Shown: piece after piece, positions 1-33,034 of the stretch
Position numbering within the stretch: position 1 is the first letter of the stretch
Layout of the letters: each line of letters starts with the position of its first letter
DNA from: a virus
Reading direction: 5' to 3' (one strand)
Length of the DNA: 33,034 nt
Virus record (IMG/VR): IMGVR_UViG_3300045988_115170
Coordinates: 1-33,034 of that record
Notes under the pieces: generated by a model
The model's database searches: none
Told to the model about the DNA's origin: nothing
Seen by the model: the letters and a program-made list of their open reading frames with translations, nothing else
Translations under genes and position numbers: made by a program

Positions 1-119
1 CATCGCTGGGCAAAAGTCAGTGTTGTCGCTGATATGGCAGTATTGGTGCGCTGAGATGCACGGCGACACCAACCCCTGCACACTGTTAAAGTTGCCCCAG
101 GGACTACCCCAAAAAAAAC
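1..119. repeat. Terminal direct repeat copy A, identical to 32916..33034 (circular-closure overlap)
   Basis: Read base by base, 1..119 equals 32916..33034. The repeat lies inside one continuous integrase reading frame. Confidence 0.95.
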
Positions 120-763
120 GGCGCGCTCCCACAGATCAAGAGGTGGCCGACGTCAAAGCGCACCCGGATGGGTTCGGCCTCTGCCCGGCAATAATGATGT
201 ATGCGGGCTTGCGCCTGGGTGAGGTCATGGCGCTCCAGAAAAAGGACCTTGCCGACGGCGAGATCAAAGTCTGTAAACAGGTGGTTTGGCACAACAACCA
301 CCCGGAAATTGAGGATTTAAAAACAGACAACGCCTATCGCACAGTGCCGATCCTCAAGCCCTTGCAGGACGCGCTCGGCACCCGCCTGGACGATCTGGCC
401 GACGACGCTTTTCTGTTCGGCGGCGCGCGTCCTATGACAAAAAGCCGTTATCAAAACGCTTGGCTGCAATACTGCACGGCCATCGGGCGCGTCCATAACA
501 GCGGCAAGCGCTACAAAACCGGCAAGACCTCAAAGACCGGCGAGGTCTTGTATAAGACGGTCATGGAGCCGGATTTCACCGCCCATCAGTTGCGGCACGA
601 GTTCGCCAGCACATTGGTCCAGTGCGGCATCAGTCCCCAGGTCGCCAAGGAATTGATGGGCCACGCCGACATCCTCACAACGCAGCGCTGGTATGCCGAG
701 GCAAAGACCAGCGCCGTCGATGAGGCTGCCGACATACTCAACAACTATTTCACCAATCAATAA
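2..763 (+). CDS. int: Tyrosine integrase, C-terminal catalytic part (continues 32566..33034 across the circular junction; whole protein about 370 aa)
   Basis: The frame is continuous with 32566..33034 through the 119-bp overlap. It carries HQLRHEFAS (HxxR) and GHADILTTQRWY (catalytic Tyr region), typical of phage tyrosine recombinases. Confidence 0.9.
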   Translation: MAGQKSVLSLIWQYWCAEMHGDTNPCTLLKLPQGLPQKKRRAPTDQEVADVKAHPDGFGLCPAIMMYAGLRLGEVMALQKKDLADGEIKVCKQVVWHNNHPEIEDLKTDNAYRTVPILKPLQDALGTRLDDLADDAFLFGGARPMTKSRYQNAWLQYCTAIGRVHNSGKRYKTGKTSKTGEVLYKTVMEPDFTAHQLRHEFASTLVQCGISPQVAKELMGHADILTTQRWYAEAKTSAVDEAADILNNYFTNQ

Positions 764-2269: not shown

Positions 2270-2400
2270 TGTATTACCTCATCTGTATCCATCACCAGCG
2301 CCTCATACTCATCCAGCAGGTCTCCCGCGCCCGGTATGGCCTCGCGGTAGTCCCACAGTACAAGCATCACCCGCGCCAGTAAATCCGCTTCCTCGCTCAT
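2266..2400 (-). CDS. Small hypothetical protein (44 aa), translationally coupled on both sides
   Basis: ATGA start/stop overlaps with both the upstream gene (2397..2822) and the endolysin. Found by manual translation; it is below the ORF-track size cutoff. Confidence 0.4.
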   Translation of the reverse strand: MSEEADLLARVMLVLWDYREAIPGAGDLLDEYEALVMDTDEVIQ

Positions 2401-2822
2401 TCTTCCACCGGCGGCGTGGGCCACTGCACCGCGTAGGGGAAGCCAGCCTGCTCGGGCACGTCCCGCAGCGCCTGGCGGTAGGCCTTCCAGTCGGCCTTCA
2501 CCGTCTTGGCATCGCCCAGCACAGTCCAGTCCGTGGCGGCGATCAGCTTGTCACGCTCAGCGCGCACGGCAGCCGCAGCGGCGTCATGGTCGGCCTGTTT
2601 AACCAGGGCGGCCCAGGCATCAACGTCAACCTGCCCATCGGGCACCTGTGTGACCGTCTCGTATGTCGTGTAGCTGTACCCGTGCCAGGGCGTGTCCATG
2701 TTGGACACAGCCTCGCGGGTGACCTCCTGCTCATCCTCGTAGACGCGCACCAGCGTCAGGCCGTTGGGCAGCGGCTCGCACTTCAGCCGGGCGTGCTGCT
2801 CGTTGCACTCACATTTAACCAT
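2397..2822 (-). CDS. Tail-fibre assembly chaperone-like protein
   Basis: The C-terminal ...RDKLIAATDWTVLGDA...WKAYRQALRDVPEQAGFPYAVQWPTPP resembles the conserved C-terminal motif of phage tail-fibre assembly proteins. Its start overlaps the RT stop by 8 nt. Confidence 0.55.
   Translation of the reverse strand: MVKCECNEQHARLKCEPLPNGLTLVRVYEDEQEVTREAVSNMDTPWHGYSYTTYETVTQVPDGQVDVDAWAALVKQADHDAAAAAVRAERDKLIAATDWTVLGDAKTVKADWKAYRQALRDVPEQAGFPYAVQWPTPPVEE
2692..2708. repeat. Palindrome family copy 2: GTGTCCA-TGT-TGGACAC (perfect), inside a CDS
   Basis: Read directly. It encodes VSNMDT in the chaperone-like gene. Confidence 0.9.
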
Positions 2823-3882
2823 TTTGTACCACCTTTCTGATTTTTCGGTAGCTCACAACACCGTCCACGTACTTCACGCGGAATCGGTGCTCGTTTGCGT
2901 GTTTCAGCTGGCCGATCCGGCACGCGGCCTGCCGGGCCTGGCGCTGCGTCGGCACGCCATGTGGCCGGGCCCTGATGTCCAGACACAGCCGGATCAGCCG
3001 CCGCGTCGTGCGCTTCCTGTAACTCACATGGTCGCAGTAGATCACAAACCCCAGCCCATCCAGTGCGCGCCCGCGGTGCCTGCCGTCCCGGTCCACGTAG
3101 TCGGTGCGGTAGACCTGCCAACACTGGTTGCAGGTGTAGTCGGCAGCCGCCAGCCACTCCATTGCCGCCTGCAGGGCGCGGTGCAGCTTGCGCTTATTCG
3201 GCCCATACAGGTGGATATTGTCCACATAGCGGTAATAGTGCGCCACGCCGTCCAGCCCGCGCACATAGCGGTCAAACGCCGTCATAGCAAGATTCTGAAA
3301 CCAGTGCGACGTCACATACCCAATCGGCAGCCCGTCGCTGAAGCTGTCCACAACAGCGTCAGCCAGCCGCAGCCAGTATTTATCCTTTATCAGCTGCCGG
3401 TAGCCGTACTCTATAAAATCATGGTCGCTCTCCGGGAAGCAATGGTGTATGTCCAGCTCTGCGCCGTACTTCATCCCGGAGCGGTCTGTTTTCATCCACC
3501 GCGCAACCTGCTTCGCGGCCTTGTGTGGCCCGCGTCCCTTGATGCCCGCTATGCAGTAGGGGTCAAGTTTGGGCACAACTGCGTCATAGATTGCCTCGAT
3601 CAATACCCAGTGCATGACCCCGTCCGGCCAGTACGGCACATAGTCGATGTCCCGCAGCTTGCCGTTGCTCGGCTCATAGTGCCGGGTGTGTATCGGCTCG
3701 CTGGGCTTCCAGCCGCCGTACCGTACCCAGTGCTGCACCTTGTCAATGCACGCCTCAATGTGCGTCAGGGCGGGCAGCGTGGTAGGGTCTTGCATCCTCT
3801 TTTTCGCATGGTCTACCATACACCTCCGTATAAATTCCCGGTCTGTCATGACCGGCAGTAAATTTCCAATGCGTTTAGGCAT
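2815..3882 (-). CDS. DGR-type reverse transcriptase (355 aa)
   Basis: Collinear with the Bordetella phage Brt architecture: KRIGNL N-terminus, YEPSNGKLRDI, AELDIHHCFPESD (motif A), LPIGYVTSHWFQN (DGR IGxxxSQ-type motif, here SH), YYRYVDNIHLYG (motif C, here YVDN) and LGFVIY. The TR lies directly upstream. The ORF-track extension to 4056 is read-through of the TR and spacer. Confidence 0.85.
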   Translation of the reverse strand: MPKRIGNLLPVMTDREFIRRCMVDHAKKRMQDPTTLPALTHIEACIDKVQHWVRYGGWKPSEPIHTRHYEPSNGKLRDIDYVPYWPDGVMHWVLIEAIYDAVVPKLDPYCIAGIKGRGPHKAAKQVARWMKTDRSGMKYGAELDIHHCFPESDHDFIEYGYRQLIKDKYWLRLADAVVDSFSDGLPIGYVTSHWFQNLAMTAFDRYVRGLDGVAHYYRYVDNIHLYGPNKRKLHRALQAAMEWLAAADYTCNQCWQVYRTDYVDRDGRHRGRALDGLGFVIYCDHVSYRKRTTRRLIRLCLDIRARPHGVPTQRQARQAACRIGQLKHANEHRFRVKYVDGVVSYRKIRKVVQNG

Positions 3883-4024
3883 TTTATAATCTTTCTTTGG
3901 CCTACACACGTTTCGTCCGCTGTCGCGTCTACTCGGCGTGCCGGATGGGCCAATTTTCAGCCAGGGCTGAGGCATCTCGATCTCTGTGTACAGGTCGCCT
4001 ACGGCCCAAAGGGCCGCAGCCAAA
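3883..4024 (-). ncRNA. TR-to-RT spacer (about 142 nt), probable part of the DGR template RNA
   Basis: Noncoding stretch between the TR end and the RT start. It contains the GC hairpin CGGCCC-AAA-GGGCCG at 4002..4016. The role is inferred from the Bordetella DGR, where the TR-brt spacer is needed for priming. Confidence 0.5.
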
Positions 4025-4141
4025 GAAAGGTCCGCCGAACTGTTCCACCAGAGCAACGACGCGTCGTTCCTGAGATTGACGTTGAACGCGCCCGCGTTGT
4101 CACCGTTGTTGGAGTTCGCACCGCGCAGAACGATACGGGAA
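4025..4141 (-). repeat. DGR template repeat (TR), 117 bp
   Basis: Ungapped alignment to 4232..4348 (offset 207) gives 13 mismatches. Ten of them are at coding-strand adenines of this copy. It contains 7 AAC codons in the VR frame. Confidence 0.9.
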
Positions 4142-4188
4142 TGATGAGATCGTTAGCCTGTCCCGGATAATGTCAATGTCGTACAGTT

Positions 4189-4210
4189 GCGGGGGCCTTG
4201 CTGCCCCCGC
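4189..4210 (-). promoter_or_regulatory. GC-rich hairpin just 3' of the VR (DGR target-recognition hairpin and probable terminator)
   Basis: GCGGGGGC-CTTGCT-GCCCCCGC, an 8-bp stem starting 9 nt past the target-gene stop codon. This matches the position of the hairpin/cruciform required downstream of the VR in the Bordetella phage DGR. Confidence 0.7.
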
Positions 4211-4218
4211 GCCCCCGC

Positions 4219-5790
4219 TTAACCGGGGATGGAAAGGTCCGCCGAACTGTACCACCAGAGCAACGACGCGTCGCTCCCGAGATTGACGTAGAACGCGCCC
4301 GCATCGCCACCGCTGCCGGAGTACGCACCGCGCCGAACGATCCGGGAACCGCTCTTGTTAATCCAGAAATAGTCTGCAAGATAGGTTCCGCTGCTTCCGC
4401 CGACTTCCTTTGTGATCTGCAGCCACGGGAACCGCTCATCGGCCTGCAGGTTCTTGGCCCAGCCCTCGTTAGGCAGCGTGAGGGAATCCAGCTTCGTGTA
4501 GTTCTCAACGCTCGACCAGTTGTAGTTGGTGTCGTTGCAGATGTAGGGCACGCCGTCAACGATTTTCCAGTCGCACTCAAAGCGCCACTGGTTGCCATAG
4601 AGCGGGTTCTCGCAGCCGTAGAACACAAAGCTGTGCTTGCCGTCCGTATTGCTCACAGGGCTGCCGCAGGTGGAGATGACGCTGTTGGCCGTGCCAGTGC
4701 TCTGCATGATGCGCCAGACCTTGTGGTCGGTGGTCGTGGTCACCGCGTCGCCGGAGAAGCTGGCCTTGACGTTGGCAGTGTCGCCCTCGATGGCTTCGAT
4801 GGCCGTCACAATGCGCTGGCTCGCAACGCTCGCATTCTCGTCGCCGGTACCGATGGAGATGACGTTGCCGACCTCCAGCACGCCCTTGGCAACGGTGACA
4901 GCCGCCTCATCGGCACGCGCGCCGGTCACGGCCTGGTTGGTGGCGTACAGGTCGGTGACGCCGCGCATCTTGGCCTGGACGTTCCGCGTGCCGTACACCA
5001 CGATCATCAGGTAGGCCAGCACCTCAAAGTCGGCACTTGTATTGATGCAGTAGGTCTCGCCCCACAGCCGCGCCGCGGCCAGAAACTGCGAGATCGTCTT
5101 GCTGCCGGTGCTGACAACGCCCGCAATACTGTGCAGCTTGCCGTCGCTGCCGATGGAGCCAGGGAACGCGGGCAGGTAGCACTTCTGTTTGAGGGAGCCG
5201 TCCGCATTGCGGAACTTCCGCGGTGCGCGGAATCCGGGCATCGGCACCGCCGACACGCGCGGATTGACATCCAGCATGCCGGAGACATAGAAGAGCGGCA
5301 CCTCAACCAGCACCTCGCCGTTCGTGCCATCCTCAATGTAGCCGGGCTGGCCCTTGTAGGCGTTGACCGTGACCGTGCCGTCCGCGTTCAGCGTGCAGCA
5401 GCAGCGCCGCATACCCGCCCAAGGATAGACGCCGTCAAAGTCGTTTTGTCCTGCGCTGGTATCGGTGCCGGGGGTAAACACAAACTCCGCAGCTGCCCCC
5501 GTCCGCGTGCCCGCGCTGGTACTGCCGGAGAAGTCTACACCGTAGAATGTAGCACCGACAGCCGAGGCCGCAGCCTTGGCAGATGCGGCGGCAGCAGTAG
5601 CGCTCTGGCCCGCCTGCGTAGCACTGGCCTGGGCGGCAGCCTTGGCCGCGTTCGCCTCGGCCAGGTTGTTGCCCGCGTTCGCCAGCAGCGTGGCGAACTC
5701 CTCACGGGTGCCGGTGTAGCCGCGCGCCTTGGCATCGGCGTAGGCGGTTACTGCGCCCAGATCGGTGGTAAAAACAGAACTATCAGCCAT
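4219..5790 (-). CDS. DGR target: tail fibre / receptor-binding protein with a C-terminal variable (C-type-lectin-like) region
   Basis: Start MADSSVF is preceded by GGAGGT. It follows the tail-fibre gene and holds the VR at its extreme C-terminus. The pattern G..NAG.F..NL resembles Mtd-type VR regions. Confidence 0.8.
   Translation of the reverse strand: MADSSVFTTDLGAVTAYADAKARGYTGTREEFATLLANAGNNLAEANAAKAAAQASATQAGQSATAAAASAKAAASAVGATFYGVDFSGSTSAGTRTGAAAEFVFTPGTDTSAGQNDFDGVYPWAGMRRCCCTLNADGTVTVNAYKGQPGYIEDGTNGEVLVEVPLFYVSGMLDVNPRVSAVPMPGFRAPRKFRNADGSLKQKCYLPAFPGSIGSDGKLHSIAGVVSTGSKTISQFLAAARLWGETYCINTSADFEVLAYLMIVVYGTRNVQAKMRGVTDLYATNQAVTGARADEAAVTVAKGVLEVGNVISIGTGDENASVASQRIVTAIEAIEGDTANVKASFSGDAVTTTTDHKVWRIMQSTGTANSVISTCGSPVSNTDGKHSFVFYGCENPLYGNQWRFECDWKIVDGVPYICNDTNYNWSSVENYTKLDSLTLPNEGWAKNLQADERFPWLQITKEVGGSSGTYLADYFWINKSGSRIVRRGAYSGSGGDAGAFYVNLGSDASLLWWYSSADLSIPG
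4232..4348 (-). repeat. DGR variable repeat (VR), 117 bp, encoding the C-terminal residues of the target protein
   Basis: See the TR entry. The VR reads ...RGAYSGSGGDAGAFYVNLGSDASLLWWYSSADLS and the TR reads ...RGANSNNGDNAGAFNVNLRNDASLLWWNSSADLS. Confidence 0.9.
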
Positions 5791-7027
5791 GGATCTGTAC
5801 CTCCAAATTCGTGTCATTGACAATAGCAAAATCAATCTTATCTTTCAGATTGGTCGTGCGCGTGTACATCAGATGCCCCGTGTCTTGGTCAACGCCCATC
5901 TGCATATAGCCGTTGCTCAGCGCGGCCTGCCGCGCCAGCTCCACGTTGGCGGTGACATCGACCTGCTTCTCGGTCACATCCTGCTGGCGGGCCTTGACAT
6001 CCTCCTGGATGCCCTGCATCTCGGTCAGCTTCTCGGCCACGCCCTCGTTGATGACCTTTGTCGCCGCATCGCCGGCGGTTTTGGCGGCATCCGCAGCGCT
6101 TTTTGCACTCGCAGATGCGCTCGCGCTGGCGCTCTCGGCAGCGGCCCGCGCGCTTTCCGCTGCGCTTGCCTTTTCTGTGGCCGTACCGGCAGACTGCCCC
6201 GCATTCGTTGCGGATGCAGCAGCCGCAGCAGCGCTTTCCTTTGCCGCCGTGGCAGACCCGGCAGCGGCACCGGCCTCCTGTGTGGCCTTGGCGGCGGCTT
6301 CGCCAATGCTGTTGGCATCCTTGGCGGCAGCCTCAGCAGAGGTCGCTGCTCTCATCTCAGACTGCGATGCCGCGTTCTGCGACTTCCCGGCAGCGGTTGC
6401 CGCAGCCGCAGCGCTGGTAGCGGCATTGCCCGCCGCATGCGCAGCCTCCACAGCAGCGTTCTTGGCCGCGTTGGCGGTATCTGCGCTGGCCGCAGCCGCC
6501 GCAGCGCTGGCAGCTGCACCGCCCGCTTCCTCGCCCGCCTTGATGGCGGCATCCTCAGCGGCCCGGTGCGCGTTTTCCGCGGCATCCTTGGCGGCCTGCG
6601 CCACCCGTATCGCGTTGTTGGAGTTCTCCAAGATCTGCTGCACCACATCCGGCGTAGGTGTGCCCGGATTATCGCCGTCGATGTCCGCGTGATCCCGGAT
6701 GGAGTAGGGGAGATCGACTGAGATACGCTGCACGCCGTCCGCAAGGCCTAAAAACACGATCTTGCCGCGGCCAGCCTTGTCTGCCGTCGCCTCCGCAGGG
6801 ACCTCCAGCACGCCGTCCGCGCCAACCGTCTTCTTGGTCGCAGACCCACCGGGCGCGTGGAACACAGCCAAAGTCTCCAGACCGCTCCATCCATCGCCCT
6901 GGACGATGCGGATATTCTCGATGCCGTAGCTGTCCTTGGTTCCCAGCTCAATGCTGGGCGTGACCGAGTAACGGTTGTCAACGACAACGTCATAATTCAT
7001 CAACACAATGGTTTTTATAGTGGCCAC
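5783..7027 (-). CDS. Tail fibre / baseplate upper protein-like (BppU_N-like N-terminus followed by a long Ala-rich coiled coil)
   Basis: Position in the tail-tip module. It has an N-terminal beta-rich domain and then about 200 aa of Ala/Ser/Glu-rich helical repeat. Confidence 0.55.
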   Translation of the reverse strand: MATIKTIVLMNYDVVVDNRYSVTPSIELGTKDSYGIENIRIVQGDGWSGLETLAVFHAPGGSATKKTVGADGVLEVPAEATADKAGRGKIVFLGLADGVQRISVDLPYSIRDHADIDGDNPGTPTPDVVQQILENSNNAIRVAQAAKDAAENAHRAAEDAAIKAGEEAGGAAASAAAAAASADTANAAKNAAVEAAHAAGNAATSAAAAATAAGKSQNAASQSEMRAATSAEAAAKDANSIGEAAAKATQEAGAAAGSATAAKESAAAAAASATNAGQSAGTATEKASAAESARAAAESASASASASAKSAADAAKTAGDAATKVINEGVAEKLTEMQGIQEDVKARQQDVTEKQVDVTANVELARQAALSNGYMQMGVDQDTGHLMYTRTTNLKDKIDFAIVNDTNLEVQIHG

Positions 7028-7033
7028 CTCCTA

Positions 7034-7276
7034 TTAGCTGCCGTTCCCGCCGATGGGATATTCCACAATGATCGTGCCGGATTCTCTGGCTATGTGAACC
7101 CGCTGACCGGCTGAAAATGTGATAGCGGCATTGTATGGGTAATGCTTTTCTGCCGCCGTGGTATCGCCCGGCAGGATCAGCGCGATCCCGTCGCTGTAAA
7201 TGGCACTCACGGTTGCAATATTTCCGCTCTTGGCGGTCGTCTCAAGCGCTTTCCGCTGTTGGTAATTCTCAATCAA
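7034..7276 (-). CDS. Hypothetical small tail-module protein (80 aa)
   Basis: Overlapping gene junction within the tail-tip module. No recognisable motif. Confidence 0.4.
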   Translation of the reverse strand: MIENYQQRKALETTAKSGNIATVSAIYSDGIALILPGDTTAAEKHYPYNAAITFSAGQRVHIARESGTIIVEYPIGGNGS

Positions 7277-21383: not shown

Positions 21384-21574
21384 TGGGCATCACCTCCCGG
21401 AGATGGTTCAAAGTCATCACATTCCAGCACAATGCCCGCGCCGTCCGTCTTTTCGACGCCGTAGCAGTACAACTCACAATCCAGGTTAAACAGTCCCTTA
21501 TTGTGGGTGCACCCCTCGCACCTGTCAAGGTGCGGCTGGCTCATGCCGGGAATCCCGCAAAATCCGCTGTTCAT
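21380..21574 (-). CDS. Small Cys-rich hypothetical protein (64 aa)
   Basis: ATGA-coupled at both ends. Six Cys residues (CGIPG...CEGC...C...C). Confidence 0.45.
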   Translation of the reverse strand: MNSGFCGIPGMSQPHLDRCEGCTHNKGLFNLDCELYCYGVEKTDGAGIVLECDDFEPSPGGDAQ

Positions 21575-22983
21575 TTCTTTTTCGCCTCCCGCGCGGCCCG
21601 CTGGATGTCCTCGGCAATGTAGCCCTCAATACCCGCGCCGGTGCTGTACCAGCGCTTGTACCACTCAAGCGCATTGATGTCTCCGTCCCGGCCTGCGCGC
21701 TCACCGTCCGGGCCGAGTCGGACAGAAAAGCACTCACGATACGGGAACCCATCCACCGGGCCGTCATATCGCCCCATATCATCCACCGCGATGATGAGCC
21801 GCCCGCCGTCGAACATTTTGCGCTCACGGATCGTAAGCCCTAAATCCTTGTGACGGGCCGTCAGCTTCCAGTTGTCGAAGTCGGCCAATTCTTGCCGAGC
21901 CAGTACGAGCCATTTTTCAGCGGCGTCATGCCGTGCCTTTTCGGCGTTTCTTTTCGCTTTCTCCTCGGCCTTATATTTTTCAAGCGCTTTTTTGTCAATA
22001 TAGCGGCTGCGCGCGGTGCGGTACAGTCGGGATGAATAGATGCAGCTCTTGGCGATGACCTCGTTCTGATCCGCCGGGTCCAGCTGTTCAACAGTGAACG
22101 ATGTCCGCCCTGCCGGGGCGATGCGCAGGATAGCGTTGGCGATATTATCGGTCATGTCCAACGTCACGGTCTGCATTTTCTGTGCATCAAACTTGCCCCC
22201 GTCCGCATAATTCCACTCACAGCACTGGACGTAATCCAATCCCCTCAGCTGATCGGCCATGCCCTCATCAACAATGTACAGGATTGCGGCTTTCTGTACC
22301 TCATCGCTCGCCTCCGGCAGGGGAGCGTAGCTGTTTTTTGCGTATGTCGCCTGCTGTACCTTGTACAGCTTGCTGCACTCATAGGCCCGCGTCATGGTGA
22401 TCTCGCCGCGCTCCACCATCGCCAAAACCTCCGGCACGCAGTTGTTGGCAATGGCATTCAGCCTCCCCAGTGTGCCGGTGCCTTCGCCGGTGATGCGGCT
22501 CATCTCATCGCGGACGCGCCCGCCCAGGCTGCCCGCCGCCTTTTTGCGTTCAAGGGCCTGTTTGAGGGCGATGTACTGCCGGAGTCGTTCGCCGTCCGTC
22601 AGCTCGCGCGCCGTGGCGTTGGAGGTGATCAGCGCGATCAGGTCATCATCCGCGCCCTGGCTTTGGTGGATAACACAGGGCAGGACCTCAAACCCGGTCA
22701 CACCCTCAGCCGTCAGCGCACAGCACGCGGTCCAACGGCGGTGTCCGGCCAGCAGCATATATTTGCCGTTCTGGGCGGGCAGGACCTCCAGCGGGCTGCG
22801 CAATCCTCGCTCGGCAATGTCGGCTTTCAGCATGGAGACATCGCCGATCTCGTAGATGCTGTTTTCCGGGTTCGGTTCAATATCGGCTGCCGGCAGCATG
22901 ACGACCTGCATTTTCTGACCCGCCGGGGCGGCTGTTTTCGCACTGCTGCCGAGAATGTCGTTGATAGAAAATCCCTTGCTCAT
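21571..22983 (-). CDS. parB: ParB-like protein (ParB/Srx N-domain plus HTH, long unknown C-terminal half)
   Basis: VVMLPAADIEPNPEN...LLAGHRRWTA carries the GxxRxxA ParB box, followed by an HTH-like GRVRDEMSRITGEGTGTLGRLNAIA. Strong SD AGAGGAGGA. Confidence 0.75.
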   Translation of the reverse strand: MSKGFSINDILGSSAKTAAPAGQKMQVVMLPAADIEPNPENSIYEIGDVSMLKADIAERGLRSPLEVLPAQNGKYMLLAGHRRWTACCALTAEGVTGFEVLPCVIHQSQGADDDLIALITSNATARELTDGERLRQYIALKQALERKKAAGSLGGRVRDEMSRITGEGTGTLGRLNAIANNCVPEVLAMVERGEITMTRAYECSKLYKVQQATYAKNSYAPLPEASDEVQKAAILYIVDEGMADQLRGLDYVQCCEWNYADGGKFDAQKMQTVTLDMTDNIANAILRIAPAGRTSFTVEQLDPADQNEVIAKSCIYSSRLYRTARSRYIDKKALEKYKAEEKAKRNAEKARHDAAEKWLVLARQELADFDNWKLTARHKDLGLTIRERKMFDGGRLIIAVDDMGRYDGPVDGFPYRECFSVRLGPDGERAGRDGDINALEWYKRWYSTGAGIEGYIAEDIQRAAREAKKK

Positions 22984-22986
22984 GGT

Positions 22987-23769
22987 TCAATCCTCCTCTG
23001 TGTCCACGTTGGACACGATGCTCTCAACCTTTTCGGCCAGCGCCTTATAATCCAGCGCTGCCGTGCAATCAGGGCTGAACGTGCGTAGCGGCTTGTGTGC
23101 GCTCTTGGCCTCGCTGACCCTCACGGTGTAGCGGATGACCGTGGGCAGCAGGGCCAGGCCGGGCAGCTTCTCAGCAATGGTGTGGATGACGTCTGCCGCG
23201 TACCGAGTGCGGCGGTATTTCGTCAGCAGCACGCCCATGATTTTGAGGCGCGGGTTGTAGTCTATCTGCACCTGCTCGATCTGGTCGATGATTTCCCGCA
23301 TCCCGTCACAAGCCCACTCATCACAGTCCACCGGGATGATGACCCAGTCAGCCGCGCACAGGGCGTTGATGCTGCCCATGTCAAGGTCTGGCGGGCAGTC
23401 CATGATGCAGTAGCCATAGTTGGCGCTTACGTCCTTGAGGGCATCGCGCAGATGGTATTGGCGCGGGCCGTTGTCCATCAAGATCATGCGGTTTGCTTTC
23501 AGCATCCGCATGTCGCAGGGAATCAGATTGACGGCGGCCAGGTTGGTGTCTACCACGGCACCCGGCGCGCGGCACACGCCCAGCATGATCTCTGCGATGC
23601 TGGGGCTGTCGTAGTCCAGAACACCGAAAAACTTGCTTGTGTTACCTTGTTTGTCCAGATCAACCACCAACACGCTCTTGCTCTTGGCGGCCAATTCGGC
23701 GGCCAGGTTGCAGGCGGTGACGCTTTTCCCGACGCCGCCTTTCAAGTTGATAATTGCAATGCTGATCAT
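22987..23769 (-). CDS. parA: ParA/Soj-family ATPase
   Basis: Deviant Walker A NLKGGVGKS near the N-terminus and typical ParA length (260 aa). Confidence 0.9.
   Translation of the reverse strand: MISIAIINLKGGVGKSVTACNLAAELAAKSKSVLVVDLDKQGNTSKFFGVLDYDSPSIAEIMLGVCRAPGAVVDTNLAAVNLIPCDMRMLKANRMILMDNGPRQYHLRDALKDVSANYGYCIMDCPPDLDMGSINALCAADWVIIPVDCDEWACDGMREIIDQIEQVQIDYNPRLKIMGVLLTKYRRTRYAADVIHTIAEKLPGLALLPTVIRYTVRVSEAKSAHKPLRTFSPDCTAALDYKALAEKVESIVSNVDTEED
23000..23016. repeat. Palindrome family copy 6: GTGTCCA-CGT-TGGACAC (perfect), in the last codons of parA and abutting the parB-like SD
   Basis: Read directly. It encodes VSNVDT. On the minus strand it is followed immediately by AGAGGAGGA and the ATG at 22983. 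Confidence 0.9.
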
Positions 23770-31441: not shown

Positions 31442-32080
31442 ATGGCTAAATTTTCGGCAATTATAAAATCCCTTCGCATCGAGAGAGGCATAACGCAAGA
31501 GCAACTCGCTGCCTTGCTAAAAGTATCCCGCAGTACGATAGGCATGTATGAAACTGGTAGCCGCGAACCAGATTTTGAAACGCTTGAAGCTATCGCAGAC
31601 ATTTTCAATGTCGACATGGATTATCTCATGGGGCGATCAACCGTAGAACGGAAAGATCCTGTTGCCGCTACCCCAATCCCCGCCGGGTTCCAGCCGCTGC
31701 CGAAGCGGGACCTCATCCCGCGTGTGGGGCAGATCGCCTGCGGCACACCCATCCTCGCGGAGGAGAATGTCGAGGCCTACGATGAAGTCCCCAGCGAGTG
31801 GCATGCCGACTTTACGCTGCTATGCCAGGGCGACAGCATGGAGCCAAAAATCAAAGACAGCGATGTCGTAGCCATCCACAGCCAGCCAATGGTCGAGAAC
31901 GGCGAGGTCGCTGCCGTCCTGATCGATGGCGAAGCCACCCTCAAGCGCGTGTTTCTGTTCGATGACCACATCGAGCTCCGCGCCGAAAACCCAGCCTTTC
32001 CCACGATCATCCGCATCGGCGAGGATATGAACACCATCACCATCGAAGGCAAGGCCGTTGGCCTATGCCGCAAATTGTAA
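31442..32080 (+). CDS. CI/LexA-like repressor (XRE HTH plus S24 autopeptidase)
   Basis: N-terminal HTH ITQEQLAALLKVSRSTIGMYETGSREP. C-terminal GDSMEP (catalytic Ser) and ATLKRV (catalytic Lys). Confidence 0.9.
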   Translation: MAKFSAIIKSLRIERGITQEQLAALLKVSRSTIGMYETGSREPDFETLEAIADIFNVDMDYLMGRSTVERKDPVAATPIPAGFQPLPKRDLIPRVGQIACGTPILAEENVEAYDEVPSEWHADFTLLCQGDSMEPKIKDSDVVAIHSQPMVENGEVAAVLIDGEATLKRVFLFDDHIELRAENPAFPTIIRIGEDMNTITIEGKAVGLCRKL

Positions 32081-32565: not shown

Positions 32566-33034
32566 ATGCCAAAAGTAGCAAAGCGCGCCGACGGCCTGGT
32601 TGAGCGCTGCCGGATCATCAACGGGAAAAAGCGTCATTTCTATGGCCGCACTCTCAAAGAGGTACAGGCAAAGATTGACGCCTCTGTTGTGGAGGCGTCC
32701 GTCCGCAAGGAAAAAGGAGATCCGTTTGGCGATGTGGCCGAGGCTTTCTGGCGGGTCAAAGAGCTGTCAATCAGATATGGCTCCCGCCGGGGCTACCGCC
32801 ACAAAGTAGAGGTTGCTAAAGATTGGTTCGGCCAGCAGGGGATGCGTGAGATCAGCAGCACCGACATCAACCGCCAGCTGACACACATGGCCGCCCAGGG
32901 CTATGCTTATAAGAGCATCGCTGGGCAAAAGTCAGTGTTGTCGCTGATATGGCAGTATTGGTGCGCTGAGATGCACGGCGACACCAACCCCTGCACACTG
33001 TTAAAGTTGCCCCAGGGACTACCCCAAAAAAAAC
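32566..33034 (+). CDS. int: Tyrosine integrase, N-terminal part (arm-binding and core-binding domains); continues at position 2 after the circular junction
   Basis: The ATG at 32566 is preceded by GGAGG. No stop codon occurs before the window end. The last 119 nt are identical to 1..119 and in frame with ORF 20..763. Confidence 0.9.
   Translation, partial: MPKVAKRADGLVERCRIINGKKRHFYGRTLKEVQAKIDASVVEASVRKEKGDPFGDVAEAFWRVKELSIRYGSRRGYRHKVEVAKDWFGQQGMREISSTDINRQLTHMAAQGYAYKSIAGQKSVLSLIWQYWCAEMHGDTNPCTLLKLPQGLPQKK
32916..33034. repeat. Terminal direct repeat copy B (identical to 1..119)
   Basis: See copy A. Confidence 0.95.

Follow-up and report, generated by a model that had tools for sequence, protein, structure and literature searches.

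The stretch of DNA analysed here, referred to as the window, is a 33,034-nucleotide virus sequence (IMG/VR record IMGVR_UViG_3300045988_115170, positions 1 to 33,034) in which a region of the minus strand is very probably a diversity-generating retroelement (DGR) of a temperate siphovirus-like phage of the human gut. The cassette is located at the end of the tail module, all of which is encoded on the minus strand, and its features follow one another in the order tail proteins, a 414-amino-acid (aa) tail protein, the target gene, its variable region (VR), a hairpin, the template region (TR), a spacer, a reverse transcriptase (RT) gene and a gene for a tail-fibre assembly chaperone. The target gene (5790..4219, minus strand; ATG at 5790, stop codon at 4219) encodes a 523-aa tail protein that carries the VR at its C-terminus, and the non-coding TR (4025..4141, minus strand) is placed between the stop codon of this gene and the start codon of the 355-aa DGR-type RT (2815..3882, minus strand).

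The VR (4232..4348, minus strand; target codons 482-520) is a 117-nucleotide (nt) repeat of the TR, and the two align without gaps over their whole length with 13 mismatches, the homology ending sharply at both sides. The repeats lie 207 nt apart, leaving a gap of 90 nt between VR and TR, and no third copy is present within the window. Read on the coding strand, the TR has A and the VR has G or T at 10 of the 13 mismatched sites, corresponding to plus-strand positions 4044, 4067, 4071, 4083, 4098, 4100, 4106, 4109, 4110 and 4116. With 22 adenines among the 117 nt of the TR, the probability that at least 10 of 13 mismatches fall at A is 1.5e-6 by the hypergeometric and 9e-6 by the binomial distribution. 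The other three comprise two T>G changes (TR 4135 and 4127), both near the 5′ end of the repeat, and one C>T change (TR 4096). In the frame of the VR, the TR contains seven AAC codons and one AAT codon; its translation ends ...RGANSNNGDNAGAFNVNLRNDASLLWWNSSADLS, and that of the VR ends ...RGAYSGSGGDAGAFYVNLGSDASLLWWYSSADLS. Adenine mutagenesis of the TR affects 14 codons and gives access to ~8e12 protein variants with no reachable stop codon, stop codons being excluded by the AAY-rich design of the TR.

Much of this anatomy had been proposed in a preliminary description of the same DNA, made from the letters and their open reading frames without database searches, and it stood up to closer analysis. 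Pairwise alignment reproduced the 117-bp ungapped TR/VR pair with its 13 differences and recovered the same ten coordinates for those at TR adenines; the seven AAC codons claimed for the TR frame are present together with the additional AAT, and the VR, described as the C-terminal end of the target, corresponds to the codons given above in a 523-aa open reading frame (ORF). The 8-bp GC hairpin said to lie 3′ of the VR (4189..4210) can be read directly in the sequence, the 142-nt spacer following the TR (4024..3883) was verified, and the 8-nt overlap claimed for the RT and chaperone genes was confirmed from the ORF coordinates. The context that had been described, a tail protein followed by the RT and then by an assembly chaperone, agrees with the phrog_5302 and PF16778 family matches of the two flanking proteins detailed below. 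The lack of a gene for the accessory protein Avd and the YVDN form of the RT catalytic motif, both treated below, went unremarked in that description.

Adenine-specific divergence is also observed in 33 further TR/VR pairs from related human-gut contigs. When these and the window's own pair are taken together as 34 distinct pairs, 359 of 763 TR adenines (47%) are changed in the VR, 184 of them to G, 100 to C and 75 to T, compared with 23 of 1323 cytosines (1.7%), 19 of 1109 guanines (1.7%) and 51 of 715 thymines (7.1%), where 46 of the changes are T>G. Three groups of contigs each share one identical TR and carry three to five different VRs, and within these groups the polymorphic VR columns comprise 53 of 70 that correspond to A in the TR, 13 of 66 that correspond to T and only 3 of 209 that correspond to C or G (A vs. 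the rest, P = 5e-33). The template is thus invariant where the VRs vary, which is evidence that diversification in this phage family is ongoing, directed by the template and specific to adenines, and the expectation of the preliminary description that variation in the VR would follow the adenines of the TR holds in the population.

The same data bear on the possibility that the two repeats arose when a fragment of the gene was duplicated in an ordinary, tandem-like fashion and then diverged at random or underwent gene conversion, with no connection to the neighbouring RT. Two direct repeats at a spacing of 207 nt, and the VR-TR fusions that occur in some database contigs as expected of recombining repeats, would fit such an origin, however the mismatches are concentrated at the adenines of one copy only (P ~1e-6 in the window, and the 47% vs. 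1.7% of the 34 pairs), in the population the TR stays constant where the VR is hypervariable, and transitions do not dominate among the substitutions. Moreover, the repeat is always found with a Brt-like RT and, with a single exception among the related loci, TR and RT have been lost together. A chance duplication is therefore exceedingly improbable as an explanation of the pair, in agreement with the preliminary description, which had treated the repeats as something other than a duplication with random mismatches.

The excess of T>G changes forms a second signature with a context of its own. Sorted by the base that follows the thymine in the TR, T>G is found at 31 of 188 sites before G, 9 of 47 before A, 4 of 152 before T and 0 of 307 before C, so that 16-19% of the TR thymines preceding a purine are affected. 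VRs with the same TR also differ from one another in this change (T vs. C+G, P = 1e-6), indicating that it is made during diversification and is not a product of drift or sequencing error, and two of the three non-adenine mismatches of the window (TR 4135 and 4127) are of this type. In vitro, misincorporation by the RT of Bordetella phage BPP-1, Brt, on uracil is at baseline, 0.5% (PMC7826257). The simplest reading of the signature in the window family is misinsertion of dC opposite U immediately after a copied purine. The signature itself suggests that mutagenic specificity varies between DGR lineages. Three other origins were considered. An Illumina or assembly artefact was rejected on the grounds that T>G is never seen in the identical context within the TR copies and that the change segregates among identical-TR VRs. 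Leftover ancestral TR adenines were rejected because, apart from 5 C, these VR columns contain T or G alone and never A across 715 sites. Mutagenesis of adenines while the second strand is made is unlikely, given that the spectrum at A sites in this family predicts T-to-C above T-to-G.

Several conserved DNA and RNA elements accompany the repeats. A GC-rich hairpin (4210..4189, minus strand) with an 8-bp stem and a 6-nt loop (GCGGGGGC-AGCAAG-GCCCCCGC) is positioned 21 nt after the VR and is kept in nine distinct variants, in which 95.8% of cells are paired and two pairs show compensatory double changes. A GC-rich stem-loop downstream of the VR serves target recognition in BPP-1 (PMC3240598), and by analogy the hairpin of the window is probably a target-recognition element; a role as terminator was ruled out because no T-run follows it. 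A smaller hairpin (4001..4017, minus strand; GCGGCCC-TTT-GGGCCGT) is found right after the TR, and in relatives its sequence differs while the structure is kept, with arms such as GCAATCC/GGATTGT and GCAGCACAGC/GCTGTGCTGT.

The 142-nt spacer (3883..4024, minus strand), which separates the TR from the start of the RT gene, contains an RT-18 RNA (Rfam RF03021; 3891..3969, minus strand), identified by cmscan at 42.9 bits (E 2e-5; gathering score 41.3) and covering model positions 1-84 of 84. The motif is present at the same place in four cassette-bearing relatives (L001, L003, L020 and L024; 42.9-46.1 bits) and was not detected in five relatives that have no RT, and its long stem shows compensatory changes in relatives. 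In addition, the 3′ end of the TR together with the start of the spacer (CUUUCUUUGGC, 4029-4019) can form a perfect 11-nt duplex with the end of the spacer (GCCAAAGAAAG, 3901-3891). This second arm lies just before the RT start codon and overlaps the likely RT ribosome-binding site; the duplex is invariant in all relatives, so it offers no covariation to score. RT-18 was published without an assigned function by Weinberg et al. (2017), in whose work RT-10, in the spacer of BPP-1, is the only motif tied to a DGR and a DGR role of further RT motifs is offered as speculation (PMC5737381). The window matches the full RF03021 model above its gathering score immediately upstream of an RT gene and, unlike the function-less published family, places the motif between a verified TR and a DGR RT. 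The locus thus supports a role of RT-18 in DGRs, and a likely function can now be assigned to this Rfam motif.

The RT itself matches Pfam RVT_1 and phrog_1423 (E 1e-58) and contains motif A as ELD(144), motif B as PIGYVTSHW and motif C as YVDN(219-222). Searches with the single sequence give weak results, with 33 bits to RVT_1 and E 2e-4 to Brt, and a look-up of the exact RT sequence returned no record. A profile built from 23 family members, however, aligns over its full length with Brt (PDB 8ub7) at E 1.7e-47, with the best group II intron RT at E 3.5e-26 and retron RTs and the RTs of defence systems (DRTs) also far behind. The AlphaFold model of the enzyme has a mean predicted local distance difference test score (pLDDT) of 89, and its best PDB match is again 8ub7, in the active state (template modelling (TM) scores 0.85/0.92; root-mean-square deviation 2.4 A), with all other RT classes at TM 0.73 or lower. 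The placement of a Brt-like RT in the DGR clade, as given in the preliminary description, is consistent with both the profile and the structural match. Against 27 distinct relatives, the ratio of nonsynonymous to synonymous substitution rates (dN/dS) is 0.05-0.17, indicating purifying selection on the enzyme.

These comparisons also address the idea that the gene encodes an RT of another retroelement class, such as a retron, a group II intron or an Abi/UG/DRT defence RT, that merely lies beside a repeat. Weak single-sequence matches to NCBIfam models of group II intron, retron St85, Drt3a and Drt2 proteins point in that direction, although all are far below their cut-offs, whereas the family profile favours Brt over group II, retron and DRT structures by 21 orders of magnitude and Brt is the sole structural match with a TM score above 0.8. 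There is also no intron ribozyme, maturase or endonuclease domain or effector gene at the locus, and a spacer RNA occupies the interval between TR and RT, as in BPP-1. An RT from outside the DGR class can hardly be credited on this evidence.

Within the DGR class the enzyme is nevertheless a variant. Motif C reads YVDN (3217-3228, residues 219-222) in place of the canonical YxDD, a glutamate (Glu142, encoded at 3457-3459) occupies the position two residues before the aspartate of motif A, and the DGR signature [I/V/L]GxxxSQ, which DGR RTs carry in place of QGxxxSP (PMC7826257), reads IGYVTSH, with I-G and S kept and Q replaced by H. All three features are invariant in 41 full-length RT relatives. 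A wider comparison drew on 151 sequences, namely the window RT and the best 150 of 28,156 matches (representatives of 50%-identity clusters). Among these, 17 carry an xxDN motif C, and glutamate at position -2 of motif A is present in 14 of the 17 xxDN enzymes and in 0 of 134 DD enzymes, 117 of which have lysine. The signature motif reads [IL]GxxxSQ in 111 of the 151 and [IL]GxxxSH in 6. The xxDN state persists in RTs down to ~33% identity, and in a rough neighbour-joining tree the Glu/Asn sequences occupy at least three separate positions, which hints at a coupled change of the two residues, the tree being too crude to prove independent origins. A literature search for a YxDN-type variant of motif C found nothing relevant.

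The target protein matches phrog_5302 'tail protein' (E 3e-48), and more than 737 cluster representatives of homologues are found in public metagenomes. Across 72 full-length homologues, most of the protein shows a column entropy of 0.0-0.6 bits, which rises to 2.3-3.5 bits in the hypervariable columns of the VR, each of which holds 9-14 different residues; these peaks coincide with codons whose TR form is AAC, AAT, AGG, GAC or AGT. Sequence searches of the target against Pfam and PDB gave no match, even at a permissive E of 10, and Pfam searches with the C-terminal 144 aa and 243 aa, or with a version in which the VR was replaced by the TR translation, returned nothing at E up to 10. Profile matches to ribosomal proteins in PDB were rejected as products of low-complexity, Ala-rich sequence. 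An AlphaFold model of the full target from a 68-sequence alignment was unusable (mean pLDDT 33) since the alignment is too shallow, the homologues among the matches listed all being at least 73% identical. The protein would presumably act in receptor binding.

The N-terminal part of the target shares degenerate Ala-rich repeats (5566-5655, 6062-6562) with the protein encoded upstream, the Ala-rich 414-aa tail protein (7027..5783, minus strand). In the target these repeats are modelled as a long helix (residues 29-77, pLDDT 65-81), and the Ala-rich region is probably a coiled-coil shaft or attachment region. On the other side of the cassette, the tail-fibre assembly chaperone gene (2822..2397, minus strand) was assigned by a match to PF16778 (E 2e-23) and to several PHROG tail-fibre assembly families, and is part of the context rather than a component of the DGR. 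It overlaps the RT gene (3882..2815) by 8 nt, an arrangement that makes translational coupling of the two plausible.

The element shares much with the DGR of BPP-1, which is organized as mtd-VR, avd, TR and brt. In both, the VR is located at the extreme C-terminus of a target tail protein, the TR is ~117-134 nt long and rich in AAC codons, a GC-rich 8-bp hairpin is found downstream of the VR and roughly half of the TR adenines are substituted, and Brt is the closest relative of the window RT by sequence profile and by structure. The two differ most visibly in the accessory gene. Avd is essential in the BPP-1 prototype; in the window there is no avd, and VR and TR are separated by only the 90-nt gap, which contains no ORF. 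Brt also has YMDD, lysine at position -2 of motif A and SQ in place of the YVDN, glutamate and SH described above. A-to-G is the commonest change in the window family, whereas Brt mostly misinserts dA in vitro, and the T-to-G rate at T-purine sites stands against the baseline error on uracil reported for Brt (PMC7826257). The spacer RNA is RT-18 in the window, whereas that of BPP-1 is assigned to RT-10 (PMC5737381).

The absence of Avd is not exceptional among DGRs, since avd was found in 74% of 372 DGRs in a survey that described a Lineage 3 without the gene and proposed Avd-independent retrohoming (PMC5758913). Avd is thus not a class-defining feature, yet its absence is a real difference from the prototype. 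Like the Avd-less DGRs of that survey, for example Lineage 3 (Wu et al. 2018, PMC5758913), the window element lacks avd, HRDC and MSL genes and has just one target next to it, however Lineage 3A was reported only in Bacteroides and relatives (PMC5758913), whereas the window phage has ~59% G+C and a hint of a Coriobacteriaceae host. This comparison is made with the survey's description of the lineage, in which a YxDN motif is unmentioned (PMC5758913). Other gut phages, including the Hankyphage, Bacteroides uniformis siphophages and the crAss-like LMMB, likewise carry DGRs that diversify a tail-fibre-like C-terminus, and these are abundant in human gut viromes (PMC8143477, PMC7290462). They belong to another phage lineage, with a host that is probably of another phylum, and their cassettes have canonical accessory and RT features.

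Related loci show that the cassette is often lost. The 3′ end of the target and the chaperone gene are both present in 82 loci, counting the window. Of these, 43 carry the complete cassette and 22 only a C-terminal RT remnant, and the RT is absent from 16 and interrupted in one, so that the TR-RT cassette is missing from 38 of the 82 (~46%). The remnants, found for example in L008, L010, L016, L021 and L026, begin at RT residue 251, 306/307, 309, 312, 316 or 320-322, and these differing break points indicate that the cassette was deleted repeatedly; loci with no RT include L009, L012, L028, L050 and L058, the last two on large prophage-bearing contigs of 146 kb and 298 kb, respectively. Loss leaves a frozen VR and a target gene directly upstream of the chaperone gene. 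A single locus, L013, keeps the TR without the RT. Deletion in ~46% of relatives allows receptor-binding proteins that diversify to be compared, in nature, with ones that are frozen.

A further class of variant consists of VR-TR fusions that read into the spacer through a deletion of ~200 nt, observed in L027, L070 and L079 and in proteins P0047, P0049, P0052, P0057 and others (539-552 aa). Several are mosaics whose 5′ portion is diversified and whose 3′ portion resembles the TR. They represent either assembly collapse of the two repeats or genuine VR-TR recombination.

Some observations weigh against a functional DGR in the window. Three of its 13 mismatches do not fall at adenines, no Avd-type (PF05635) domain was detected in the 39 window ORFs scanned against Pfam, and YVDN and IGxxxSH depart from YxDD and [I/V/L]GxxxSQ in a way that, for a single copy, could mean an inactive enzyme. 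A simple scan found no sigma-70-like promoter upstream of the TR on the minus strand, and the single-sequence fold of TR and spacer is no more stable than that of shuffled sequences (z = -0.38), so the RNA structure rests on the Rfam match and on covariation. For the target, the low pLDDT of 33 and the lack of Pfam or PDB matches give no reliable fold for the variable domain, which in DGR proteins is typically a C-type lectin (or Ig-like) fold that displays the variable residues.

Taken at their strongest, such points would describe a fossil DGR, active in the ancestry of the phage with a window copy that is now inactive and a VR that is a frozen record. The non-canonical motif C and the lack of an Avd gene fit that account, as do the frequency of cassette loss in the phage family (~46% of related loci) and the three non-adenine mismatches, which could be drift since the last homing event. 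Against it, however, YVDN, Glu142 and IGYVTSH are invariant across the 41 RT genes, at a dN/dS of 0.05-0.17, and xxDN is kept down to ~33% identity, occurring in 17 of the 151 sequences compared. VRs that differ in an adenine-specific manner are found on contigs whose TRs are identical and whose RTs have YVDN, from which it is evident that the variant enzyme works in this lineage, and the window retains an intact RT ORF, TR and spacer RNA as well as intact hairpins. A fossil element is accordingly considered unlikely, and a working DGR is preferred.

For such a working DGR we infer template-primed cDNA synthesis, homing, independence from Avd and present activity of the window copy, in a sequence of steps modelled on BPP-1. 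The TR and the structured spacer, with its hairpin and RT-18 RNA, would be transcribed, by analogy with BPP-1, and the Brt-like RT encoded just downstream would bind this TR-spacer RNA. The enzyme would then copy the TR into cDNA, misincorporating opposite template adenines and, at a lower rate, opposite uracils that precede a purine, the latter giving rise to T-to-G changes in the VR. This cDNA would take the place of the homologous VR, which forms the 3′ end of the gene for the tail protein, guided by the invariant 3′ homology and by the GC hairpin that follows the VR after 21 nt. As a result, 14 codons within the last ~40 residues of the tail protein would vary, amounting to ~8e12 combinations with no stops, and the choice of host receptor could presumably be changed through this VR diversity.

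A more specific version of this model is possible but, on balance, doubtful: an Avd-independent DGR with a re-wired RT site, in which the change of the second YxDD aspartate to asparagine is combined with the lysine-to-glutamate change beside the motif A aspartate, with a wider mutational spectrum (A-to-N, and U-to-G before a purine) and with RT-18 as the priming or scaffold RNA. If so, this wider spectrum would bring Leu, Trp and Tyr codons within reach of diversification.

The core finding is an ordinary one, as DGRs are a well-catalogued class and the phage family is already abundant in public gut viromes. The absence of Avd, the Glu142/YVDN pair, the T>G signature, the RT-18 RNA and the repeated loss of the cassette make the element moderately interesting and experimentally tractable. 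The family is natural and abundant, with dozens of gut contigs and 41 RT genes in which a DGR appears to work without Avd and with YVDN, and it bears on the minimal needs of adenine mutagenesis and on compact DGR-based mutagenesis tools.

The carrier of this element is a temperate siphovirus-like phage of the human gut, and the window represents its complete genome of ~32.9 kb with ~59% G+C. Exact copies of a 119-nt direct repeat at the two ends (1-119 and 32916-33034) indicate that the genome is complete and circularly permuted. Markers of a temperate lifestyle include a tyrosine integrase (20-763, plus strand) and a CI/LexA-like repressor (31442-32080, plus strand), and the window further encodes a ParA-like protein (22987-23769), a ParB_N protein (21571-22983) and the replication proteins DnaB and single-stranded DNA-binding protein (SSB). 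Structural genes include those for the large terminase (TerL), portal, prohead protease, HK97-type capsid and tape-measure proteins, and a gene encoding an HNH endonuclease adjoins the terminase. The chaperone gene is followed by a gene for an M23 peptidase and then by the lysis genes, a gene order that is identical in related contigs.

Relatives were gathered by protein-seeded locus searches, which yielded 99 related loci from human-gut metagenomes and IMG/VR. A blastn search of positions 2300-7100 against 50,697 GenBank phage records returned a single 102-nt match and nothing else. An exact-pattern scan of IMG/VR with the 3′ half of the TR/VR, adenines masked, gave zero matches because the lineages differ at non-adenine positions. 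In a scan of genome contigs, the sole match to a species genome was one 11-kb contig of a Coriobacteriaceae metagenome-assembled genome, and this single contig is only a hint of a Coriobacteriaceae host. On a 117-kb contig that holds one of the RT-less relatives (L016), two tRNA genes are found at L016 positions 6601-6821, ~1.5 kb downstream of the lysis module, and this pair may mark a prophage boundary or attachment site.

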